Part shown: piece by piece, positions 17,096 through 45,536 of the stretch | Layout: every line of letters begins with the position of its first letter | How positions within the stretch are numbered: position 1 is the stretch's first letter | Assembly: GCA_903919315.1 (NCBI GenBank) | Contig: CAIXHP010000026.1 | Coordinates: 10,428 to 74,427, forward strand | Length of the DNA stretch: 64,000 nt | Origin: an uncultured Pseudomonadota bacterium | GTDB taxonomy: Bacteria; Pseudomonadota; Alphaproteobacteria; UBA9219 | Reading direction: 5' to 3' | The notes under the pieces: generated by a model | Seen by the model: only the letters and a program-made list of their open reading frames with translations | Told to the model about the DNA's origin: nothing | Databases searched by the model: none | Translations under genes and position numbers: made by a program

Positions 17096-18130
17096 TCACA
17101 AAAACATCTGCTTTACGTTTATACTGGAACGCTGGCCAAGCGCGTCCCAGTTGGCGGTCAGCCATGCCTCGGCCGTACGGCGGCCGAGGTCTTTCAGATG
17201 CAGCAGAAAGTCCATATCCGTATTGATCTTACTTGCGGAACCAAGCGCGCGCATCTCATCCTCAGCCGCAATAACGTGAATGAACATATGTTTCAGCCGC
17301 GCTGCCTCTTCGTTTTTCAGTTGATCCTCTTCGATGAGCTTCTGGACAAACGCGATCGCGCGCATCTCGCTCATCAGGGAAGAGTTAAAGCTGATTTCAT
17401 TGATGCGGTTGATAATCTCCATTGGCGAGTCGGGCGTGCCCGAACGCACCATAGGGTTAATCTGCACAAGCACCACGTCAGGTGTCGTGCAATGGTAGAT
17501 CAGCGGGAATACGGCGGGATTGCCGACATACCCGCCGTCCCAGTAGGGCACGCCATCGACCGGCACGGCTTGAAAGGCGAGGGGCAGACACGCCGAGGCC
17601 ATCAACACGTCAAGGCTCACTTCCTCACGCCTAAAAACGCGGATTCGCCCGGTCTCAACGTTCGTTGCCGAGACGAATAGCTTTATCGCGGGAAAGGCGC
17701 GAATAGCCTCAATATCGAGGATATCTTCCAACAGGTCGCGCAACGGATTGAGGTTGAACAGATTGGTTTGATAGGGCGACATCATCCGCTGCATCATGTC
17801 CGTCATCATCGTGGCGGGTGAGTTGTCGGTGTTCCAATTGCCGAGCATCTGGTCAACGACGCTTCGGTGCGGCAACCCAAAACTTCCCAGTGCGCTGACA
17901 CCGGTCCAGAACCGCTCCAGCATCTCCCGCGCCCCGTCCGCACCGCCTGTGGCATAGCCGTTCAACAGGACGGCGGCATTCATGGCTCCGGCGCTGGTGC
18001 CGCTGATACCCTCGATCCGCAATCGGTTGTCCTCTTCCAAGAGCCGATCAAGAACGCCCCAAGTGAATGCTCCGTGGCTCCCCCCGCCCTGAAGCGCGAG
18101 ATTGACGCCTTTGACCGTCGTCCCTGACAT
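17096..18130 (-). CDS. Patatin-like phospholipase family protein
   Basis: GGGSHGAF oxyanion motif, GTSAGA serine hydrolase motif, DGG catalytic Asp. Confidence 0.85.
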   Translation of the reverse strand: MSGTTVKGVNLALQGGGSHGAFTWGVLDRLLEEDNRLRIEGISGTSAGAMNAAVLLNGYATGGADGAREMLERFWTGVSALGSFGLPHRSVVDQMLGNWNTDNSPATMMTDMMQRMMSPYQTNLFNLNPLRDLLEDILDIEAIRAFPAIKLFVSATNVETGRIRVFRREEVSLDVLMASACLPLAFQAVPVDGVPYWDGGYVGNPAVFPLIYHCTTPDVVLVQINPMVRSGTPDSPMEIINRINEISFNSSLMSEMRAIAFVQKLIEEDQLKNEEAARLKHMFIHVIAAEDEMRALGSASKINTDMDFLLHLKDLGRRTAEAWLTANWDALGQRSSINVKQMFL

Positions 18131-18382
18131 GTGAACTCCCTGAAAACAACGCGATCGTCACACAAACCGACAATTACATTAACGAAGTCTTTATTTTTCG
18201 CGGCACTTTGACCGACAGAAGATATTTTTTCGCAACATTCAAACACGAGGCTACACCATTGATATTCAGGTGGAAATTTCTTGACGTTTTCACTCCGGTT
18301 GTGGATAATAGTGCAATCGCCGCGAGCTCGGTTTTATGGCGCGTCGCTTCTTGAAATCCATTAGAAAAAGAAGTGGTACAAC

Positions 18383-18772
18383 ATGACAACAACCTCTCTT
18401 CATCGCATGGCCAAGGCGTTCGCCTGCGGAGCTTTGCTACTCTCCCTCTGTATCCTCCCCACCGGCGCTGCTTTTGCAGAAAGGCTCTTTCCGCCGCTTG
18501 ACGCAACCGGGACGGTTGACTGCGCCGTTAACGCAGGCGACAAAGTCCTTTTGTGGGACACATCGAACGGCGGAAGAGTGCGCTGCGACGAGAAAGCAAA
18601 CGTATTCTCGACTTTGTGGGAATGTTCGCCCGGACAATACATTACCAAAATTGTCAACGGTGAGCCGCAATGCAAAAACATCGTACGTGCAGCCATTGCA
18701 TGCCCTGCGAATGAATATCTCACCGGCATTAACACCGATGGATCTGCGGTTTGCAAACCCATGAACCCATAG
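18383..18772 (+). CDS. Secreted cysteine-rich protein, paralog A (129 aa, 6 Cys in the mature part)
   Basis: Signal peptide ...TGAAFA followed by ERLFPP. Two copies of a C-P-x-x-Q/E-Y-x-T-x-I...C module. First of three tandem paralogs. Confidence 0.6.
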   Translation: MTTTSLHRMAKAFACGALLLSLCILPTGAAFAERLFPPLDATGTVDCAVNAGDKVLLWDTSNGGRVRCDEKANVFSTLWECSPGQYITKIVNGEPQCKNIVRAAIACPANEYLTGINTDGSAVCKPMNP

Positions 18773-18840
18773 CGCTTTCATTGAGGGCCAAACGATCCGG
18801 CTCTCTTGTCCTACACGTTCTTGACACCATGAGGAATTTG

Positions 18841-19410
18841 ATGCGCATCCCACCCAAGTTCACCAAAGTCATAGCACAAGGCCTTCTGGTTTTAGGTCTG
18901 GCGGCGCTTTTTGCGGATCTGGCGCAGGCGGGCGAATTGTTTCCTCCAACCCGCGCCAACGGCACAGGAATATGCAATCTGAACGATCAGGTTCTGGTGT
19001 GGGATTCGACGGGCGGAAAAAATAAGTGCGTGTCCAAATCGTCCTTTATCACAGCACAAGCGCGATGCCCGGTTGGACAGTTTGTGACGAAAGTCGAGAA
19101 CAGCGTTCTCACCTGTTCGGCGCCCAAGTTTCCGCGCGTAACCTGTCAGGATAAAGAATTTCTGACAGGTATCAATGCTGACGGAACACCTATCTGCTCA
19201 CTCCCGCCCGCGACCCTATGCCCCGCAGCGTCCGGTCGATGCGTGGGGGGGGGGCAATTTGACATGATTGCGCAAAACAACGTCGTCTGCTGGCACACAA
19301 ACCCAAGAACGGGGGACTGCACATGTCCATCCGACTGCACGACGCTTGAGGGCGCGCACTGGAAACCCAGCAATCATACCTCAGCCGCCGTCTTTTTCTG
19401 CATCCCGTGA
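18841..19410 (+). CDS. Secreted cysteine-rich protein, paralog B (about 190 aa; conserved core plus a Cys-rich C-terminal extension)
   Basis: ATG at 18841 is preceded by GAGGAA. Signal peptide ...DLAQA followed by GELFPP. Same six-Cys core as paralog A. Confidence 0.6.
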   Translation: MRIPPKFTKVIAQGLLVLGLAALFADLAQAGELFPPTRANGTGICNLNDQVLVWDSTGGKNKCVSKSSFITAQARCPVGQFVTKVENSVLTCSAPKFPRVTCQDKEFLTGINADGTPICSLPPATLCPAASGRCVGGGQFDMIAQNNVVCWHTNPRTGDCTCPSDCTTLEGAHWKPSNHTSAAVFFCIP

Positions 19411-20048
19411 TGCGGGACGGATTTGTCATTTTACCGATAGCCTGTGAGGAAACCGTGTCAATCACACTCCGAACCGCCAAGATTTTTTCCCTGTGCCTCT
19501 TGGCCTTGGGCCTGAGCACACTTTTTCCGAACAACGCCAAAGCGGATCGTCTTTTTCCACCCTTTAAAGGCGACACACTCAACGTCTGCGACGGTGATGA
19601 CCAGCTATTGATCTGGGATAAAGACGCGGGGAAAAACAAATGTACGGATACATTTGCGATCGTCAATACGGCTGCCTGTCCTCCTAATCAATATATGGTC
19701 CATATCGTCGGTGGCAATATCAGCTGCGTTGGCTACGCCCCAGCCGGAATTTCTTGTCCTGACGGACAATTCATGACTGGGATCGATGCCTCCGGAGCAC
19801 CTATCTGCGCCGCCAAAGCCCCTAACCTATGCCCTCCGCCGCCAAGAGCTTGCACAGGCGGCTGGGCTCAAAGTGGCCACTCAGGAACTGGCGAGCATTG
19901 GTGTAATGATTATACTGGTGATGGTGTCTGCACGTCATATCCTGGCCACTGTAGAGGAACCTGCTCAACAAGAGGGCCAACAGCTTCGGCCTGCAGTGGT
20001 CGCGTCTGTCGAGATACCTATATCTGCACCGGCACGACAACGCCCTAG
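19410..20048 (+). CDS. Secreted cysteine-rich protein, paralog C (core plus Cys/Gly-rich extension). Alternative GTG start at 19455 gives a canonical signal peptide.
   Basis: ATG overlaps the B stop (TGATG). AKA followed by DRLFPP. Same core motifs (LLIWD, CPPNQYMVHIV, CPDGQFMTGID). Confidence 0.55.
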   Translation: MRDGFVILPIACEETVSITLRTAKIFSLCLLALGLSTLFPNNAKADRLFPPFKGDTLNVCDGDDQLLIWDKDAGKNKCTDTFAIVNTAACPPNQYMVHIVGGNISCVGYAPAGISCPDGQFMTGIDASGAPICAAKAPNLCPPPPRACTGGWAQSGHSGTGEHWCNDYTGDGVCTSYPGHCRGTCSTRGPTASACSGRVCRDTYICTGTTTP

Positions 20049-20148: not shown

Positions 20149-20225
20149 CGGAGAGTAGCTCAGCCCGGTAGAGCACTGCCTTCGGGAGGCAGGGGCCGGA
20201 GGTTCGAATCCTCTCTCTCCGACCA
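20149..20225 (+). tRNA. tRNA-Pro (anticodon CGG)
   Basis: 77-nt cloverleaf: acceptor CGGAGAG/CTCTCCG, D-arm AGCTCAGCCCGGTAGAGC, anticodon stem CTGCC/GGCAG with loop TTCGGGA, T-arm GGTTCGAATCC, 3' CCA encoded. Confidence 0.85.
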
Positions 20226-20285: not shown

Positions 20286-21848
20286 CTAGGTCACCACCTC
20301 GGCCGCTCCGCCCTCGCGCTGGACCACGAGCCAGTTCTGGCGGCCGGTCTGGAAGTTGATGCTGCCGGTCAACCCCAATGCCTCCAGCGTGTGAACGTAC
20401 AATCCGCGTAGTTCTTCGGGCAAGCCATGGGGAAGGGGGCGCTCGCTCCGCACGACAAGTTCAAGCTGCCGTGGCCGTGCCAGCCCGTCCATTTGCATCG
20501 CCCCGAGGCGCGACATGTTCATGCTGATAAGAAAGCGCGTTTGCTTCGCAAGCTCAGCTCCGGCCAAGCTCGACTGCCTCTGCTGGCCGTCCCGATGCAC
20601 ATAGAGCCTGAGCATCTGGAACTGCCCTTGATCGATGATCGGAAAGGGGAAAGCCCGCCACTCCCCGACCGTGGTGTCGCGGGCTGGGGCCGAGGCCTGT
20701 TGCAGTTCGTCGATCAGCTTGGCGATAAGCTCGCGTTTTCCGTCTTTGTCCAGCTTGCCCGTCGCCTCTTCGCCCAGCCATCCCGTCACGCCGCTCTGCT
20801 GCAAGACGTTGAACAGAAACAGCATGGAACCGGGCAGGGCAGCGTTGGCTTGCGGAACCCGCGTGTGCAAGACCTGCTGCGCCAGTGCCGGATCAAGCTG
20901 CTGCAACGCCGCCATCAATTTTTGCAAAGAGGGAGCTGAATCGTCTGGGTTTATCGGCCATGCAATCGCCGCTGCTTCCTCCGACGGAAGCACCGATAAC
21001 AGGAGTCTGCTTCCCGTTGGCAAGTCCGCGCTCTGGCGCACGAAGAGCGATGTGCCCTCGACACGCAGCAAAAGCCCGCCATGACCGCCTTTGCCGACCA
21101 CGGTGGCAACAAACTGGTCGGCTGTTTCGGGAACCGGCGCTAACGCATTCGGCGCGACGACGCTATCAACCCGTAGCCTCAGCTCCGCGCCAAAGCTTTG
21201 AAGATTCACATTGGCAGGGCCGGTCTTCACCACCGCCCCCGTCGTCACGGATGGCGTTTGAGCAACCGCCGTCGATGAGATGGCTTTCGGCAAAGCCTGC
21301 GTTGCGGGAGCCGTACCCCCTGAAGAGGTCGTCGCCAACTTGGTTGATGGCTCCGGCACCCGCCCGAAATCCCCCGGCAAGACAACGGCTGAAAGCGTCA
21401 GTCCGGGCGCGATAGGCGGCCCTGATGGCTTGAGTCCCTGAGCGAAGGCGACTAACGGCGCTGCGGAACTTCCGCCTGCAAACGGCTCCATGACCGAAGG
21501 CGGCACCAGCAAGAATGCCTGTGTCGGAGGACTTCCGGGTTGGAGGATGAGGCCGACGGGACGTTGGCTCTGTGCCATCGGCGCAAGAAACGAAGCCAGA
21601 GGATTGGTCGTGCCGTTCGGCAGAGGCGAAGCGCCGAGAGTCAAATTTCCCGCCGCCGTTTGCATCGTAAAAACGCCGTCATCCAACAGCGCCACAATCG
21701 GGCCGTTAAGTTGGATCGCGCGAGCCAATTGCTCAAGCTTGCTCGGCAGGGACTGGATCGCAACGCTTAACAACGCCACTTCGTCCGGCACAGCGTTCGT
21801 TAACAAGGCCGTCGCAACGGTGGCATTCAGAGGGGGGAGATCGACCAT
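20286..21848 (-). CDS. Putative flagellar hook-length control protein (FliK-like). Pro/Ala/Thr-rich with a FliK-like C-terminal domain.
   Basis: Last gene of the flagellar operon. C-terminal region ...MSRLGAMQMDGLARPRQLELVV..ERPLPHGLPEELRGLYVHTLEALGLTG fits the FliK C-terminal pattern. Low-complexity N-terminal two-thirds. Confidence 0.4.
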   Translation of the reverse strand: MVDLPPLNATVATALLTNAVPDEVALLSVAIQSLPSKLEQLARAIQLNGPIVALLDDGVFTMQTAAGNLTLGASPLPNGTTNPLASFLAPMAQSQRPVGLILQPGSPPTQAFLLVPPSVMEPFAGGSSAAPLVAFAQGLKPSGPPIAPGLTLSAVVLPGDFGRVPEPSTKLATTSSGGTAPATQALPKAISSTAVAQTPSVTTGAVVKTGPANVNLQSFGAELRLRVDSVVAPNALAPVPETADQFVATVVGKGGHGGLLLRVEGTSLFVRQSADLPTGSRLLLSVLPSEEAAAIAWPINPDDSAPSLQKLMAALQQLDPALAQQVLHTRVPQANAALPGSMLFLFNVLQQSGVTGWLGEEATGKLDKDGKRELIAKLIDELQQASAPARDTTVGEWRAFPFPIIDQGQFQMLRLYVHRDGQQRQSSLAGAELAKQTRFLISMNMSRLGAMQMDGLARPRQLELVVRSERPLPHGLPEELRGLYVHTLEALGLTGSINFQTGRQNWLVVQREGGAAEVVT

Positions 21849-27268: not shown

Positions 27269-27592
27269 CTAGTTCCGCTCCGTCTTGATGATTTCCGTCA
27301 TCGTAATCCCTAGCCGATCCTCCACGACGACGACTTCGCCGCGCGCGACGAGGCGATTGTTGACGTAGATGTCGATGGCTTCGCCGACCTTGCGGTCGAG
27401 TTCGATGACCGCGCCGCGACCGAGTTTCAGCAGGCTGCTCACCTGCATCGTCGCCTTGCCCAGCACGGCGGAAACCTCGACGGGAATGCCGTACACGGCT
27501 TCCAGATCAGTGATACTGGCGACAGCGCCGTCTTTCGGCTTTTCGCCGTTGCTGCTTTCCAGTTCGGAAAGGGTAAGGCTTTCATCGCTCAT
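27269..27592 (-). CDS. fliN: Flagellar motor switch protein FliN
   Basis: 107 aa. SpoA/FliN domain (IPVEVSAVLGK..M.V..LL.L..G.VIELD). Confidence 0.85.
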   Translation of the reverse strand: MSDESLTLSELESSNGEKPKDGAVASITDLEAVYGIPVEVSAVLGKATMQVSSLLKLGRGAVIELDRKVGEAIDIYVNNRLVARGEVVVVEDRLGITMTEIIKTERN

Positions 27593-28296
27593 AACGTTTC
27601 TCCTGATGGTGCGTTCGTCATAGATGGATCGGTGTTGGGCGAAGCTGGCAGGCTACCCGCCTGCGCCTCCTCAACGATGCGGTTGATGTCCTGCCACAGT
27701 TTTTCAGAGTCGCGCTCAATGCCGCCGTCCGCCCATTCGATACGGCAGTCGGCCGCGCCGAGATCCGGCTCGCCCAACACCACGACCTTGCCCGCATAAG
27801 CCTGACGCGCCGTAATGTCGGCAATCTTGGCGCTGATCGCGTCGAACTGCGCCTCGCCGACGCGAATGACCAGACGCGGCTCGCGCCCGATTTCGGTCAA
27901 TACCTGTGCGATAACGGCCTGAATTTCGTCGCAGCCATAGCGGGCGGCATAGGCGGGCATGATCTTGCGAGCGACGGCCACGGCCACGCATTGAAGATGT
28001 CCCATTTGTTCGCGCCACTGTTGCGCGGCCGCTTCGTTCAGCTCATTCAGCTTTTGCTCGACGCGCCCCAACAGCGTGTTCATCTGCTGGCGTTGCGTTT
28101 CCTCGGACGCTTTTTGCCCGGCGGCATAGCCGGATTCATAGGCCTGTTCGCGCACGGTTTCCAATTGCTGCTCGGTATAAGTCGGGGCAGGCGGCTTGTC
28201 GCCCTCCACTACGCCCAGCGCAAGGCCATCGTCGAACGAACGATCAAACAAATATTTTCGCATTGGCATCGCGTCAGTAGACAAGCTCATCCTCAT
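27589..28296 (-). CDS. fliH: Flagellar assembly protein FliH-like (FlbE-position gene)
   Basis: Gene between fliG and fliN. Coiled-coil Glu/Gln-rich N-terminus and a FliH-like C-terminus ([12 protein letters not shown]). Overlaps both neighbours. Confidence 0.6.
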
Positions 28297-31335: not shown

Positions 31336-32844
31336 ATGCCAGAGGGTTTCGTTTCCTCAATGAGTTTATGCGAAAGGGTTTTTGCTATGGCGAATTGGTT
31401 TAGCAAATTCATTGGCAGCAGGTTAGTGACCAGAGTCGGTATTCCCGATATAGACGAACACGAACTAATGGCAACGCCGAGTCCGGACTCACAATACAGG
31501 CAGACCTTCGCAGTAGAATCTATGGGAACATCTGACGCGAGTATAGTGCCCCCACGCAATGCCTTGAGGCTGCTAGCGACGGAGCAAGCAGCACGCGTCG
31601 AAACAGATCAGCCGGGACATATTGGAACTAGACAGGAAGGTGCCGATGTTACGGCGCCACCGAATGAACCCGAACCACTCGCCGCCAAGAAACCAGCCAA
31701 GATTTACAAGATGAGGCGACCTTGGCCTTTGGACTCAGGTGCCAACACGGCCCCAGACCCGCACTATACTAAGTTCCAGACCCCCACCGTTGATCGCCTT
31801 AGAGCCCACGGGAATCAAACAGCCCCTATCGACACGCCGGATTACGCGATCTACGAGACTCCTTTTTTCCTAAGGCAGCTCGGCGGCCTTATCACGCTTC
31901 CTCTATTTGCCGAGGGATTGGAAGCAAAGACAGTGGCTGGACAATCTGATATTTTACCGAGAACCATGAGTATCAGCAGACCCCAAACGGACGCCACAGA
32001 AACATATGATTGGCTCGACCTTCCTGAGTTTCTTGGAGCACATGCTTTCCCGCCAACACATAATCCGCAAGACATCCCTGCCTTTTTCCAAACACCCGCA
32101 GGGCCAACAGCCCAAGAGGAACCACCGCTCGCACCTTGGATCACACATTATACAAATGCTTTTGGTGCGCTCAGTCATGAACAGGTCGGGCCTGTCACAC
32201 ACTTCCATTTTTCGGATCGCACGCGCAGTACGGTCTCGCTCCATCGTGCCGCTGATCCGGCCCAATACCGCATCACCGCGACTCCGGGTCTGACGGATGG
32301 AATGGCCAGACTGATCGTTCTGGCGGGGCATAAAGAAATGGGCGGAATCCGCCTTGATACCGAGGCATCTCAGGACGACAAACTGAGACTGTATGTAGCC
32401 GCCCAAACGGTTCTTCTTGAGCGTATGCTTGATGATGTGAGATCAGGAAATCTGGCCACTACAAACCCAGAGTTGGTGGAAATCGTCGCAGGCCGCAGTC
32501 GGCCTCCGGTCGTTGTCTTCGAAGACGGCACAGCGCCACAGGGTGGCCTTTTCAGACCAGCGCCAGAAGTAGCTACTGCTGTTGACGCGCATATTGCCAG
32601 AACAAGACAAGAACTTCTTGCTGAGCTTCAAGCAGCCATAACTACGCCTACACAGACAGCTAATCAACCAGCGCAAGATAGCGGTCGTCTGGGGAAACCA
32701 CACAGAGCTAATCACTCTCTTCTGACCACACCGTCGCAACAGGGCAGTGCCTCGCCTCAAGGGACGGTTAGGAAAAGACGAAGCAACAGGTCTCATGCGA
32801 GTGCGCCCACCACTAGGATGCCATCACCAGGCTCCGCCATCTAA
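31336..32844 (+). CDS. Hypothetical protein (502 aa, or about 485 aa from MANWF). No recognisable domain. Lower GC than the surroundings.
   Basis: Long ORF divergent from fliF, Pro/Thr/Gln-rich, no signal peptide. Composition drop over 31100-33000. Confidence 0.5.
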   Translation: MPEGFVSSMSLCERVFAMANWFSKFIGSRLVTRVGIPDIDEHELMATPSPDSQYRQTFAVESMGTSDASIVPPRNALRLLATEQAARVETDQPGHIGTRQEGADVTAPPNEPEPLAAKKPAKIYKMRRPWPLDSGANTAPDPHYTKFQTPTVDRLRAHGNQTAPIDTPDYAIYETPFFLRQLGGLITLPLFAEGLEAKTVAGQSDILPRTMSISRPQTDATETYDWLDLPEFLGAHAFPPTHNPQDIPAFFQTPAGPTAQEEPPLAPWITHYTNAFGALSHEQVGPVTHFHFSDRTRSTVSLHRAADPAQYRITATPGLTDGMARLIVLAGHKEMGGIRLDTEASQDDKLRLYVAAQTVLLERMLDDVRSGNLATTNPELVEIVAGRSRPPVVVFEDGTAPQGGLFRPAPEVATAVDAHIARTRQELLAELQAAITTPTQTANQPAQDSGRLGKPHRANHSLLTTPSQQGSASPQGTVRKRRSNRSHASAPTTRMPSPGSAI

Positions 32845-41013: not shown

Positions 41014-42471
41014 CTACTCGCTCGCCTTCGCGAGAAAGGACAGTTCGCCCTGATTCACATTGCTGTTCAGGTCGGTGAGGGGGATGGGGTAGTCGCCGGT
41101 GAAGCACGCGTCGCAATACTGCGGCTCGTCGGCGTTGCGCCGCGCTTCGCCGAGGGCGCGGTAGAGGCCGTCCATTGAAACAAAGGCCAGCGTTTCCACG
41201 CCGATGTATTTTGCCATCTGCTCGATGGTGTAATTGTGGGCCAGCAGTTTCTCCGGCTCCGGCGTGTCGATGCCGTAAAAGCAGCTGTGCTTGGTCGGCG
41301 GGCTGGAAATACGCATATGGACTTCCTTCGCGCCCGCGTTGCGCACCATCTCGACGATCTTGACGGAAGTCGTGCCGCGCACGATGGAGTCGTCCAACAA
41401 CACCACGCGCTTGCCTTCGATGAAGCGGCGATTGGCGTTATGCTTCAGGCGCACGCCCAAATGGCGGATACGGTCACCCGGCTGAATGAAGGTGCGGCCC
41501 ACATAGTGGTTGCGGATAATGCCGAGGTCAAAGGGTATGCCGCTTTCCTGCGCATAGCCGATGGCTGTTGGCACGCCTGAGTCGGGAACGGGCACGACGA
41601 TGTCGGCCTCGACAGGCGCTTCTTTGGCCAACTCGATGCCGATCAACTTACGCGCCTCGTACACCGAACGGCCTTCGAGCGAGGAGTCGGGCCGCGCGAA
41701 ATAGACATACTCAAAAATGCAGAATTTGCGCGGCACCGAGGCGAAGGGCTTCAGGCTCACCAGTTCAGAGCCATCCAAAACAACCAGTTCGCCCGGCTCC
41801 ACGTCGCGGACAAACGTCGCGTCGATGATGTCGAGGGCGCACGTCTCGCTCGCCAGAACCCACGAGTCGTTGAGCTTGCCGATCACCAGAGGCCGCACGC
41901 CATGCGGGTCGCGCACGCCAAAGACCTTGCCTTGCGCCATGCAGATCAGCGAATAAGCGCCTTCGACCTGTCGCAGAGCCTCGATGAAGCGGTCAATCAC
42001 GCTGCCGCTGCGCGCGATCGCCATCAGATGAATGATGACTTCGGTGTCGGAGGTGGAGCGGAACAAACAACCGCGCTTCACCAACTGCCGCCGCAACGTG
42101 TAGGCGTTGGACAGATTGCCGTTGTGGGCGATGGCGAAACCGCCAAAATCGAAATCGGCGAAAAACGGCTGGACATTGCGCAGAGCGGTGTCGCCGGACG
42201 TGGCATAGCGAACATGGCCGATGGCGGACGAGCCAATCAGACGCTTGATAATGGCTTCGGAGTTAAACGTCTCGCCAACATGGCCCAGCGCATGATGCGA
42301 GTGAAAATGCTCGCCGTCATAACTGACGATCCCGGCGGCTTCCTGCCCGCGATGCTGAAGGGCATGCAGACCCAACGCCGTCATAGCGGTCGCGGAGTCG
42401 GAATGGATAATGCCAAACACGCCGCACTCTTCGTGCAGCTTGTCGTCGTCCAACGGGTTCGTTGTAAGCAT
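41014..42471 (-). CDS. purF: Amidophosphoribosyltransferase
   Basis: Propeptide then CGVFGI Ntn-hydrolase start. PRTase motif. 485 aa. Confidence 0.95.
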   Translation of the reverse strand: MLTTNPLDDDKLHEECGVFGIIHSDSATAMTALGLHALQHRGQEAAGIVSYDGEHFHSHHALGHVGETFNSEAIIKRLIGSSAIGHVRYATSGDTALRNVQPFFADFDFGGFAIAHNGNLSNAYTLRRQLVKRGCLFRSTSDTEVIIHLMAIARSGSVIDRFIEALRQVEGAYSLICMAQGKVFGVRDPHGVRPLVIGKLNDSWVLASETCALDIIDATFVRDVEPGELVVLDGSELVSLKPFASVPRKFCIFEYVYFARPDSSLEGRSVYEARKLIGIELAKEAPVEADIVVPVPDSGVPTAIGYAQESGIPFDLGIIRNHYVGRTFIQPGDRIRHLGVRLKHNANRRFIEGKRVVLLDDSIVRGTTSVKIVEMVRNAGAKEVHMRISSPPTKHSCFYGIDTPEPEKLLAHNYTIEQMAKYIGVETLAFVSMDGLYRALGEARRNADEPQYCDACFTGDYPIPLTDLNSNVNQGELSFLAKASE

Positions 42472-43157
42472 TATGGCCTACCCTTCTTTTCAACCAGATC
42501 GTTCATTTTGGTGCGCGCATCGTCTTCATAAGCGGGAGCATCTCCCCCCTTCACGGCGGGCGTTGGCGTGGAAAGTCGTTCCAACTGCTCGGCGGCCTCG
42601 ACGGCATCAATGCCCTGATCGCGCTTTTTGCGCATAGCCGCAGCGGCTTTGTCCTGCTCATCCTGCGGCATCAATTCTTTGACCAAATCGGCGCCGAAGG
42701 CAAGGACGGGTTCGGTTCTGGCCTCGGCCAGCCAGTCGGGCAACGTGTCTTCCTTTTTATCCAAGAAAACCCACGTCGCGGCAAGATAAAGCAGGGACAT
42801 GACCAATAGACCACGCACGAACCCGAACACCAAGCCCAAAGACCGGTCAATGGCCGTTAGAGTCTTGCCTTTGACCATGCCCGACAAAAGGTTGCCGATA
42901 GGGATGAGGATGATCATCGCCAGACAGAACAGACCCAGCGCCGTGGCGGCGTCCGATCCCATCTCGCTTTTGATGTGCGAATGAACCCAAGGCTTGGCGA
43001 CGGGATATAGCGTGACCGCTGCAAAAGAAGCGCCGACCCAAGCGCCAAGCGAGAAAACCTCACGCACCAGACCGCGCCAAAAAGCCAGTCCGCCCGACAA
43101 AAGCAGAACGACAAGCACCGAAAGGTCAACCACGTTAAAGCCAGAGTGTTGTTCCAT
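42471..43157 (-). CDS. cvpA: CvpA-family membrane protein (colicin V production protein homolog)
   Basis: N-terminal four-TM CvpA domain. Classic cvpA-purF pairing. Acidic C-terminal extension. Confidence 0.8.
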   Translation of the reverse strand: MEQHSGFNVVDLSVLVVLLLSGGLAFWRGLVREVFSLGAWVGASFAAVTLYPVAKPWVHSHIKSEMGSDAATALGLFCLAMIILIPIGNLLSGMVKGKTLTAIDRSLGLVFGFVRGLLVMSLLYLAATWVFLDKKEDTLPDWLAEARTEPVLAFGADLVKELMPQDEQDKAAAAMRKKRDQGIDAVEAAEQLERLSTPTPAVKGGDAPAYEDDARTKMNDLVEKKGRP

Positions 43158-43365
43158 TTTCCTTACCGCCTGACCATGAACGGCCCCTGTCTAGCACAAA
43201 TCGCGGCAAAGTTAATGCTTTCCTGCAAACAAAAGGGCCGAAGATTCCGTTTTTTTGGTTCTGCCTGAAAAAGTTAACCGAAGCGGCATGAAACGGACAA
43301 AAACCTGTTTAAGCCGAAAGAAGTAAGTATGATGTCGCTATGTATCGTAATTTACGGGCTATTTT

Positions 43366-44130
43366 ATGAGTTTCGGATACACGGATCATTTAAACGTTAC
43401 GGCTGGCCTGCGGAAATTTTGCGGCCTTTGGGATATACCCTATCCCAAAGACGGCGAGTTCTTTGATGGCACAGAGAGCCAGATTTGCTTTACGCCCTTT
43501 GGCCTCGTCATACGGCTTGGGCTTGCGCCCCATCCCCTTGCCGATTATTACCATCCGCTTGTATTGCAACCACTGGCTGCTGCGAAACTGGGCGGCGGTC
43601 GCGTTCTGGAGATTCTGCCCTGGCTTGATACGAACGTGCAGGTGTGGGAGAGCCTTGATTTTGCCGACAGACTCATCCAAGCAACGGAGCCTGACTGGCA
43701 TTGGGCGCACGATCACGTTGCCCGGCGCAATCATGGTCGATTCTCCTGCGAGGATGAGGACATTATCGTCTTGATCGACCGTGGAATGCTGGCGGAAAAC
43801 CGCAGCGCAAAAACGGATCGCGGAACGCAAGGGAAGAACCATAGGTTTCGGCAACAAGCCGACATGTTTGCGACACGATCGCCGCAGGCAAAAGTTTTCA
43901 CCCCATTGAGCAAAGAACTGCGCAAAGCATGCCCCGACGGACTAATGCAGCCCCCGGATAAGCTAAAATTGCAAATATTCTTGGAAAAATGCATGCGAAT
44001 GGCCAACGGCAGCCAACGCGCGCCCCTGACAACGCAAATCCCCAACATCGTTCGGGCAGAGGCCCCTGACCTAAACCGCTATCTACGCGCCACCCGCCAT
44101 CAGTTCTTGCGCCAAGCGGCACCATGCTAG
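43366..44130 (+). CDS. Hypothetical protein (254 aa)
   Basis: ORF with an AT-rich upstream region. No recognisable motif. Trp/His-rich centre. Confidence 0.45.
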   Translation: MSFGYTDHLNVTAGLRKFCGLWDIPYPKDGEFFDGTESQICFTPFGLVIRLGLAPHPLADYYHPLVLQPLAAAKLGGGRVLEILPWLDTNVQVWESLDFADRLIQATEPDWHWAHDHVARRNHGRFSCEDEDIIVLIDRGMLAENRSAKTDRGTQGKNHRFRQQADMFATRSPQAKVFTPLSKELRKACPDGLMQPPDKLKLQIFLEKCMRMANGSQRAPLTTQIPNIVRAEAPDLNRYLRATRHQFLRQAAPC

Positions 44131-45536
44131 GCTTGTTTCTTTCGGGCAATGGAATTTGCCGACTGGAACAGTGGCAGCAACTCATGCAGCCGGTCGATTT
44201 CGATACGGCGCAGGCTGGTGTCGGCGAGGGTTTTGCGGCTTGTGTCGGTTTTGGGCATGATGGTCTGGCCAAAGCCGAGTTTGGCGGCTTCCTTCAACCG
44301 CAACGCCGGTTGCGCAACCCGACGCACTTCGCCGGACAAGCCGATTTCACCAAACACGACAGCCTCAGCCGGAACCGGCTCGCCCGTGAGGGAGGAGAGC
44401 AGGGCGGCGGCCACGGCCAAATCAGCCGCAGGCTCGGTGATCCGCAAGCCCCCCGCCACATTTAAGTACACGTCATTGTTGCCGAAACTAACGCCGCAAC
44501 GGGCCTCCAGAACGGCCAAGACCATCGCCAAGCGCCCGCTGTCCCACCCGATGACCGCGCGGCGCGGTGTGCCGAGCGCGGAGGGGGCTACTAGCGCTTG
44601 AATTTCCACCAGAACAGGCCGCGTTCCCTCTAAGCCCGCGAAAACCGCCGCGCCCGACGTATCGCCGCGCCGATCCGCGAGAAACAGGGCCGAAGGGTTG
44701 TGAACTTCGGCCAAACCCTTGTCGGTCATTTCGAACACGCCGATTTCGTCCGTGGGGCCAAAGCGGTTTTTGACGGCGCGAAGGATGCGGAACTGGTGGC
44801 CGCGTTCGCCTTCCAGATACAGGACGGTGTCCACCATATGCTCCAACACGCGCGGCCCGGCGATCATGCCTTCCTTGGTGACGTGGCCGACGAGGATCAG
44901 GGCGATGTTGCGCTTTTTGGCGGCGCGGATCAGTTCCTGCGCCGAGGTGCGCACCTGCGCCACCGTACCGGGGGCGCTGTCGATGGTGTCGACATACATG
45001 GTTTGGATGGAATCGATGATAAGGATGTCCGGCGCGTCGGGAGCGTCAATGCTGGCCACGATGTCGCGGATGGAAGTCGCGCTGGCGAGATCGCAGCTCA
45101 CTTCCGCCACGCCCAGCCGCGCGGCGCGGAGCCGCACTTGGTCGATGGCCTCTTCGCCAGAAATGTAGGCAACGTGGCTCTGTCCCGCGAGCTTGCACAC
45201 CACCTGCAGCAGCAGCGTGGACTTGCCGATGCCCGGATCGCCGCCGACGAGGGTAGCCGAGCCGGGGACAAGCCCTCCGCCCACCACGCGGTCAAACTCG
45301 CCGATCTGCGACAGACGGCGCGGACGAGGCGTTTCGGTGCCTTTCAGCGGCACAAATTCGATCCGCCGTCCTTTGCCCTTCAGCTTTGCGCCGTCGCTTA
45401 GACCCTTGGGCGGGCCATCGGCTACGGCTTCTTCGACCAGCGAATTCCAGTCGCCGCAAGCCTCGCACTTGCCCCCCCACTTCGCCGAAGAAGCGCCGCA
45501 CGACTGACAGACAAACTGGGTGGTTGGTTTCGCCAT
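44127..45536 (-). CDS. radA: DNA repair protein RadA/Sms
   Basis: N-terminal C4 Zn finger (CQSCGASSAKWGGKCEACGDWNS), RecA-like Walker A GDPGIGKSTLLLQ, Lon-like C-terminal domain. Confidence 0.95.
   Translation of the reverse strand: MAKPTTQFVCQSCGASSAKWGGKCEACGDWNSLVEEAVADGPPKGLSDGAKLKGKGRRIEFVPLKGTETPRPRRLSQIGEFDRVVGGGLVPGSATLVGGDPGIGKSTLLLQVVCKLAGQSHVAYISGEEAIDQVRLRAARLGVAEVSCDLASATSIRDIVASIDAPDAPDILIIDSIQTMYVDTIDSAPGTVAQVRTSAQELIRAAKKRNIALILVGHVTKEGMIAGPRVLEHMVDTVLYLEGERGHQFRILRAVKNRFGPTDEIGVFEMTDKGLAEVHNPSALFLADRRGDTSGAAVFAGLEGTRPVLVEIQALVAPSALGTPRRAVIGWDSGRLAMVLAVLEARCGVSFGNNDVYLNVAGGLRITEPAADLAVAAALLSSLTGEPVPAEAVVFGEIGLSGEVRRVAQPALRLKEAAKLGFGQTIMPKTDTSRKTLADTSLRRIEIDRLHELLPLFQSANSIARKKQA

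Follow-up and report, generated by a model that had tools for sequence, protein, structure and literature searches.

A conserved GxLFPP motif near the mature N-terminus of a rare family of Sec-exported proteins, a possible docking peptide

Results

A shared motif behind the signal peptides of three tandem paralogues

A window of DNA from an uncultured alphaproteobacterium (64 kb of contig CAIXHP010000026.1, the whole stretch analysed here) contains three tandem genes, which we call A, B and C, whose predicted products share the sequence Leu-Phe-Pro-Pro immediately behind a signal peptide. The three proteins belong to a rare, undescribed family of accessory, horizontally mobile, Sec-exported proteins. 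Across this family the motif takes the form Gly-x-Leu-Phe-Pro-Pro (GxLFPP) and is conserved as strongly as the disulfide cysteines and a tryptophan; it is the most conserved feature other than the cysteines. Our tentative interpretation is that GxLFPP is exposed at the N-terminus and serves these modular secreted stalk proteins as a linear peptide for recognition or docking. The genes and motifs are as follows.

18383..18772, forward strand: gene A, from ATG 18383 to the stop at 18770-18772; 129 amino acids, with the same call in public assemblies
18383..18478, forward strand: signal peptide of A, 32 amino acids ending in AFA, assigned by the -3/-1 rule
18479..18496, forward strand: ERLFPP motif at the predicted mature N-terminus of A, read from the sequence
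18841..19410, forward strand: gene B, from ATG 18841 to TGA 19408-19410; 189 amino acids, identical to the public gene call (P0001)
18931..18948, forward strand: GELFPP motif at the predicted mature N-terminus of B, matching the family consensus form G-x-L-F-P-P
19455..20048, forward strand: gene C, from GTG 19455 to the stop at 20046-20048; 197 amino acids, identical to the public gene call (P0003)
19545..19562, forward strand: DRLFPP motif at the predicted mature N-terminus of C, read from the sequence

All three proteins fit the criteria for Sec export and cleavage by signal peptidase I, with a basic n-region, an h-region of 10-15 residues, AxA at -3/-1 and no proline at +1. In a rule-based reading the leaders end RMAKAF..LLLSLCILPTGAAFA before E in A, KFTK..LLVLGLAALFADLAQA before G in B and LRTAK..LCLLALGLSTLFPNNAKA before D in C. 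A first-pass annotation of this DNA had placed LFPP directly after the predicted cleavage site in each protein, as ERLFPP, GELFPP and DRLFPP behind AFA, AQA and AKA respectively, and this is what the sequences contain. The proteins are 32-39% identical to one another in pairwise comparisons; of the 93 columns that they share, about 20 are invariant. In a three-paralogue alignment of this kind chance would produce about 0.2 runs of four such columns and, on this estimate, the three paralogues alone would not make LFPP significant. What does make it significant is the use of different synonymous codons together with the recurrence of the motif in 28 non-redundant members of the family. In A, B and C respectively the leucine is encoded by CTC, TTG and CTT, the first proline by CCG, CCT and CCA, and the second by CCG, CCA and CCC, so the identity has been kept at the level of the protein and does not result from recent gene conversion.

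GxLFPP is conserved throughout the family

An exhaustive search of 1.84 billion representative proteins with a profile hidden Markov model gave 229 relatives at E<1e-3. Among the 150 of these matches that were listed, at least around 25 are small proteins of 170-380 amino acids that align from profile position 2, directly behind a signal peptide of their own. These small relatives, which all derive from metagenomes or metagenome-assembled genomes (MAGs), read AxA up to the cleavage site and G-[QST..]-L-F-P-P after it. Together with further paralogues from the loci that were fetched they provided the 28 non-redundant members, all of which have a signal peptide, the motif and a tryptophan-containing hairpin (Trp hairpin, see below).

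Both prolines of the motif are present in 28 of 28 members, the phenylalanine in 25, the leucine in 23 and the glycine two residues before the leucine in 25; A and C carry E/D-R in place of G-x. Two residues past the Pro-Pro there is an asparagine or glycine in 20 of the 28. The only columns that are invariant in the family alignments are the Pro-Pro, the cysteines, one leucine and the tryptophan. The family signal peptides, including those of A and B, are 20-32 residues long and, with cleavage placed by the -3/-1 rule, the motif starts at residue 3 of the mature protein in 20/28 members and at residues 4-7 in the other 8/28. Absence of the motif from relatives, which the first-pass annotation had named as a finding that would refute it, was not seen amongst these members: the motif is family-wide and lies 3-7 residues into the predicted mature protein.

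The same annotation knew of no described LFPP tag, and we likewise found no match in Pfam, NCBIfam, PHROG or the PDB and none in the literature for an LFPP motif. Neither A, B and C nor 20 of their relatives matched Pfam, NCBIfam, PHROGs or the sequences in the PDB. With word-indexed homology searches B retrieved only itself, an 80-column family alignment retrieved nothing, and P0134 retrieved itself and one relative; it was the exhaustive profile search alone that proved productive. Scanning GTDB-representative genomes with patterns from A, B and C gave no relative, two pilin-like hairpin proteins were all that a metagenome scan yielded, and neither a viral scan nor tblastn against plasmids and phages gave a match.

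A constant N-terminus, a string of hairpins and exchangeable heads

The members share a common layout. The leader is followed by G-x-L-F-P-P-x-[N/G], by the Trp hairpin (C..VL.W....C), which is closed by a pair of cysteines, and by at least two further hairpins of the type CPxGQ..TGI..G.P.C, variable in number, and the protein usually ends in a cysteine-rich head. A is headless: behind its signal peptide and ERLFPP come the Trp hairpin and two hairpins of the CPxGQ type. B has a 30-residue signal peptide, GELFPP, three hairpins and a cysteine-rich head of the NPxTGxCxCP type. In C the signal peptide, also of 30 residues, ends in AKA and is followed by DRLFPP, by three hairpins and by a cysteine-rich head. 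While the N-terminus is constant, the heads are of at least four unrelated types:

Head type 1: NPxTGxCxCPxG, in B of the window and seven others
Head type 2: ..YVTGKVSEY..VDCW
Head type 3: ..AYEG..W..HS.PE..YCCD
Head type 4: a Gly_rich_2 domain

AlphaFold2 models mature A (97 residues) as three beta-hairpins with a predicted local distance difference test score (pLDDT) of 77 and a predicted template modelling score (pTM) of 0.36. For mature B the values are 65 and 0.32, and the C-terminal head is unusable (pLDDT ~50). In both models the hairpins are separate and two-stranded, at pLDDT 73-91, and the low pTM is what a rod would give. The region of the peptide, the first seven residues of mature A and the first nine of mature B, has a pLDDT below 50, and is the least confident part of each model and unpacked. 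Foldseek searches against the PDB and BFVD gave nothing significant; the neighbours, at the level of shape only, were the cysteine-rich repeats of TNF-receptor and EGF-like proteins and a few phage fibre proteins. The ectodomains built from such repeats are, like the models, elongated strings of small disulfide-stapled beta-hairpins, though with E >= 0.2, a TM-score of about 0.2 and no relation in sequence the likeness is one of shape.

The hairpins are also found in proteins of other kinds. Giant proteins of 1,800-5,000 amino acids (P0008, P0009, P0016 and P0026) hold the Trp hairpin 10-16 times, in the form C..Q.L.WD..TGRFSC, which corresponds to the first hairpin of A, B and C (profile positions 7-44). 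In contrast to the small proteins, the giant ones have the module as part of a ~100-residue repeat, where the sequence in front of it is GAGLTD and in no case LFPP. Many type IV pilin-like proteins with a GFTLxE leader, and tail-fibre-like proteins with a Gp53-like_C domain, end in CPxGQ hairpins. These are the same modules of ~18-25 residues, significant in the profile search, but the proteins start as prepilins do, with a GFTLxE helix, or in the manner of tail fibres, and have no GxLFPP, whereas A, B and C have a signal peptidase I leader and neither an N_methyl nor a Gp53-like_C domain. As the same hairpins are found in pilin-like, tail-fibre-like and giant proteins, they are presumably a widespread, uncurated extracellular stalk module. 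GxLFPP, on the other hand, is specific to the N-terminus of the small Sec-exported proteins.

Some details of these other proteins may be added. The repeat of the giant proteins, seen also in P0044 (1,800-5,100 amino acids over the set), ends ...SLYVATS.NGAGLTD-C..Q.L.WD.TTGRFSC and appears to be an uncurated repeat family. The pilin-like proteins that end in CPxGQ hairpins (P0025, P0027, P0033, P0040, P0053, P0060, P0084, P0088, P0118, P0148 and P0149) are of ~380-420 amino acids with one of 808, and two pilin-like hairpin proteins lie in tandem in locus L093 (3392-7197). Their build suggests that the CPxGQ hairpin is a pilus-tip or minor-pilin module.

A possible docking peptide and its alternatives

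The peptide is taken to be exposed because it is unpacked in both models and is missing from the internal copies of the Trp hairpin. Its conservation on a par with the disulfide cysteines, in proteins that otherwise diverge and exchange their heads, makes a docking peptide the simplest reading. Cleavage by signal peptidase I and disulfide formation in the periplasm would give an elongated, 'beads on a string' stalk, the first residues of which (Gly-x-Leu-Phe-Pro-Pro) would remain flexible and exposed. The peptide might then pass the protein on to a conserved partner, or hold it there, while the variable head at the opposite end would give target specificity. Such a partner would be encoded at another place in the genome and could be, for instance, an export route, a pilus tip, a surface component or a further subunit. 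Both the modular build and the presence of the hairpins at the distal end of pilin-like and tail-fibre-like proteins would fit an extracellular target-binding stalk. A bolder version, which we consider appreciably less probable than docking as such, is that GxLFPP, once exposed by signal peptidase I, is a previously unrecognised N-terminal signal of Gram-negative bacteria that sorts or docks proteins to a particular export route or surface anchor, with the stalk proteins and their interchangeable heads acting as exchangeable target-recognition fibres.

A number of points weigh against a docking peptide. In 8/28 members the motif lies 1-4 residues further from the cleavage site, and A and C do not have the glycine, so any requirement for a free N-terminus is not strict. 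The cleavage sites themselves were read off the sequence by the -3/-1 rule, and any export beyond the periplasm is hypothetical. No partner emerged either: of the neighbouring genes compared over about ten distinct contexts none recurs, type IV pilus genes (a PilS-like pilin, a secretin and PilT-like ATPases) lie within 8 kb in 2 of the contexts, which is about the level of chance, and no pilus genes were found in the 64-kb window. In addition, a low pLDDT from an alignment of 21-23 sequences is weak evidence for disorder, and a model of a monomer cannot reveal packing within an oligomer.

The best of the alternatives, in our view somewhat less likely than docking, is that the motif is structural or protective only, with the Leu-Phe packing on the Trp hairpin or on a neighbour in an oligomer, the Pro-Pro stiffening the end and blocking aminopeptidases, and no partner being involved. 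X-Pro-Pro close to the N-terminus is known to confer resistance to exopeptidases. Such a role would suit the constant company of the Trp hairpin in the small proteins and the want of a partner gene in the contexts compared, and the offset of 3-7 residues is easier to accommodate in a structural element than in a free-end tag; monomer models built from so few sequences are also weak evidence against packing. However, AlphaFold2 packs the peptide in neither model, so that the models do not support the structural cap suggested in the first-pass annotation either, and in the giant proteins the Trp hairpin occurs many times without LFPP. Moreover, the blocking of proteases would account for the Pro-Pro but not for the near-invariant Gly, Leu and Phe, or for the later [N/G].

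A signal for processing or modification by an unlinked enzyme, for instance a second cut, prolyl hydroxylation, glycosylation or N-terminal acylation of the glycine, seems distinctly improbable. Known sorting and processing tags do look like this, short and strictly conserved at one set end of an exported protein, and the glycine two residues before the leucine (25/28) could be the scissile or modified position. To our knowledge, though, where a bacterial sorting tag has an enzyme of its own, the tag is C-terminal and the genes for the two usually cluster, whereas no candidate enzyme is linked in any of the contexts compared; the suggestion made at first pass, that a sortase-like enzyme might accompany the tag, gains no support from these contexts, which share no neighbour gene. 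Nor is there a match in NCBIfam, which is rich in models of sorting signals. The remaining alternative, that the Pro-Pro, at around codons 33-38, stalls the ribosome in a manner dependent on elongation factor P as the signal peptide emerges, thereby aiding Sec targeting, with no role in the mature protein, we regard as highly implausible: polyproline stalling is established biology and the Pro-Pro is the sole strictly invariant part of the motif (28/28), always ~22-40 codons from the start, but the conservation of Gly, Leu and Phe would be unexplained and thousands of Sec substrates do without such a pause. Neither the processing tag nor the Pro-Pro pause has positive evidence.

Several established classes of exported protein were also compared with A, B and C, and each departs from them in at least one defining feature. 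Bacterial lipoproteins, cleaved by signal peptidase II at a lipobox [LVI][ASTVI][GAS]-C, do not fit as the only leader cysteines (LSLC in A, FSLC in C) have leucine at -1 and lie inside the h-region, with the AxA sites following them. Type IV pilins and pseudopilins were set aside since there is no match to Pfam N_methyl and the motif G, cut, F/M-T-L-x-E is absent from all three. The signals of sortase, exosortase and rhombosortase are C-terminal and tripartite, with a motif, a transmembrane helix and a basic tail, whereas here the motif is N-terminal, the C-termini are cysteine-rich and not hydrophobic, no NCBIfam sorting-signal model matches and no enzyme is linked. As for phage tail fibres, the proteins had no Pfam or PHROG match and nothing in 50,697 phage records or IMG/VR, and the flanks of the cluster hold no phage genes. 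For chaperone-usher subunits the model would have to be an incomplete immunoglobulin fold with an N-terminal donor strand, whereas it consists of three isolated hairpins, and the neighbours are a patatin-like gene and a tRNA-Pro. Factors secreted by type IVb pili (T4bP) are encoded in a pilus operon, whereas the window has flagellar and housekeeping genes but no pilus genes.

The operon and the start of gene C

A, B and C share one orientation and form one small operon of tandem paralogues, flanked by a divergent patatin-like gene and a tRNA-Pro(CGG). No terminator-like sites were found between the three genes. The signals associated with them are:

18281..18309, forward strand: candidate sigma-70-like promoter TTGACG-17-GATAAT upstream of A, 10/12 consensus matches, a consensus match only
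18831..18835, forward strand: predicted ribosome-binding site GAGGA of B, 5 nt before ATG 18841
19408..19412, forward strand: TGATG, in which the stop of B overlaps an ATG (19410-19412) in frame with C; probably not the start used
19446..19450, forward strand: predicted ribosome-binding site GAGGA of C, 4 nt before GTG 19455

The TTGACG-17-GATAAT site is probably the operon promoter. For gene B there is an alternative ATG at 18829. Gene C can be read from GTG 19407, ATG 19410 or GTG 19455, all in its frame, and most likely starts at the last of these, 44 nt past the stop of B, where the first-pass annotation had already noted that the GAGGA and a better signal peptide favour this start; the resulting signal peptide has 30 residues and public gene callers make the same choice. 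B and C are almost certainly co-transcribed. The TGATG overlap itself is present as first described, but the translational coupling of B and C that had been deduced from it is doubtful. Coupling with C starting at ATG 19410 (or GTG 19407) is improbable, even though both codons are in frame, since ATG 19410 has no Shine-Dalgarno sequence before it and would place 'MRDGFVILPIACEET' ahead of a normal n-region. The leader would then contain an acidic insert, CEET, and run to 45 residues, as against the 20-32 residues of the family leaders. The product from ATG 19410 is absent from a collection of 15 billion proteins, whereas the 197-residue product from GTG 19455 is called in NCBI, ENA and Logan. 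In other arrays of the family the genes are separated by gaps of 30-160 nt and do not overlap.

An assembly in ENA contains an identical contig, on which the gene calls are also of 129, 189 and 197 amino acids. Two further public sequences, P0097 (85 amino acids), a frameshifted or chimeric B with 56 identical residues and an unrelated remainder, and P0004 (125 amino acids), a C truncated by a contig end, are assembly artefacts from the same organism. The patatin-like phospholipase gene (17096-18130, reverse strand) diverges from A over a 250-nt intergenic region (18131-18382) that is richer in AT, with 48.5% GC. Shared regulation of this gene and A is possible; the patatin-like gene was not observed beside other family members. 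On the other side the tRNA-Pro(CGG) (20149-20225, forward strand) lies 100 nt downstream of C. The GC content of the cluster is 54%, compared with 58% for the window and ~60% for the flanks, and the cluster looks like a small accessory insertion beside a tRNA gene.

Genes of the family are accessory and mobile

In the related MAGs the block of genes for a sigma-54 activator, FlhA, FlhF, FleN and a FliK-like protein is syntenic with that of the window, but the synteny stops after the FliK-like gene. Between the window and MAGs labelled Rhodospirillaceae, Alphaproteobacteria, Micavibrio or 'Bdellovibrionales' the identity in FlhA is 76-84%, which makes the host an uncultivated alphaproteobacterium of the Micavibrio-like kind. 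No family member was found at 80 syntenic FlhA loci of relatives, and the relatives do not have the tRNA-Pro at the corresponding position. A link to the flagellum was rejected, adjacency to flagellar genes being confined to this window. The FliK-like gene itself (20286-21848, reverse strand) is a 520-residue open reading frame rich in proline and alanine that has no Pfam match and occupies the hook-length position after FleN-FlhF-FlhA; this position is conserved in the related MAGs at only 30-40% identity. Two other open reading frames in or beside the FliF-FliG-sigma-54 activator block, at 27589-28296 (reverse strand, 235 amino acids) and 31336-32844 (forward strand, 502 amino acids), have no Pfam match at E<=1e-5.

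Tandem arrays were found at three other loci. L003 and L009 have three genes each, the last of those in L009 being truncated where the contig ends, and L007 has two, at a contig start; L003 and L007 come from one MAG, GCA_054000375.1. This MAG represents a related lineage, since RadA is 79% and PurF 74% identical between it and the window; in the purF-cvpA-radA block (L003 1019-4643, window 41014-45536) the protein identities are 74%, 46% and 79%. The three-gene array of the MAG is 1.4 kb from radA, a distance that is 24 kb in the window, and the arrays therefore occupy different sites in related genomes. The finding of three genes in three loci had raised the possibility of a conserved A/B/C heterotrimer. 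This was rejected because the paralogues inside an array are each other's closest relatives, which indicates lineage-specific duplications and not a conserved A/B/C set.

The other members are singletons in metagenomes and MAGs, in unrelated neighbourhoods that include housekeeping genes, elements with a relaxase, type IV coupling protein (T4CP) and Fic protein, and an island with integrase and AlpA genes. P0043 and P0154 are divergent beside relaxase and MobC genes (L010 6329-8759; L095 5517-8825; L096), so some members ride on mobilisable plasmids or integrative and conjugative elements; L095 further has a Fic/VbhA pair and a coupling protein of the TraG-like type next to a family member. 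The low GC, the tRNA-Pro adjacency, the absence from the 80 loci, the relaxase, T4CP and integrase neighbours and the recurrent arrays show that the genes are accessory and mobile. Mobile elements and Micavibrio-like alphaproteobacteria, which may be predatory, seem to be over-represented among the carriers of the family.

Discussion

Few systems are known in which a linear signal at the N-terminus acts after export through Sec, curli and TcpF/CofJ among them, and little is understood of how type II secretion and pilus-related machines recognise their substrates. A strictly conserved peptide of six residues at the head of a fast-diverging, horizontally mobile secreted family is an unusually clean handle on this question. 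Besides the family itself, two other items are new to Pfam and NCBIfam, namely the disulfide-hairpin stalk module, common to pilin-like, tail-fibre-like and giant surface proteins, and the set of variable heads. Were the motif to prove merely structural, there would still be a new domain family.

Amongst known systems, the 22-residue N-terminal secretion segment of the curli subunit CsgA and the N-terminal extensions of chaperone-usher subunits direct outer-membrane secretion or the docking of subunits. In each of these a mature protein exported through Sec carries at its N-terminus a peptide that steers the next step, as GxLFPP may do, but here there are no CsgG/E/F or usher and chaperone genes nearby and the fold and sequence are unrelated. 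A closer parallel is offered by TcpF of Vibrio cholerae and CofJ of enterotoxigenic Escherichia coli, in which a flexible, aromatic-containing N-terminal 'T4bP secretion signal' hooks into the trimer of the minor pilin (PMC9565799). These differ from the proteins of the window in being encoded inside a pilus operon (PMC9565799), and their signals resemble neither one another nor GxLFPP in sequence. They are nevertheless soluble proteins exported through Sec, with a flexible mature N-terminus of ~11 residues, including a critical aromatic, that lies outside the folded domain and is the recognition element (PMC9565799). In the proteins of the window there is a conserved phenylalanine and the N-terminus is unpacked in the AlphaFold2 models; binding to a minor-pilin trimer or other partner would be hypothetical. 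On this comparison the TcpF/CofJ secretion signal would be the nearest worked-out precedent for GxLFPP.

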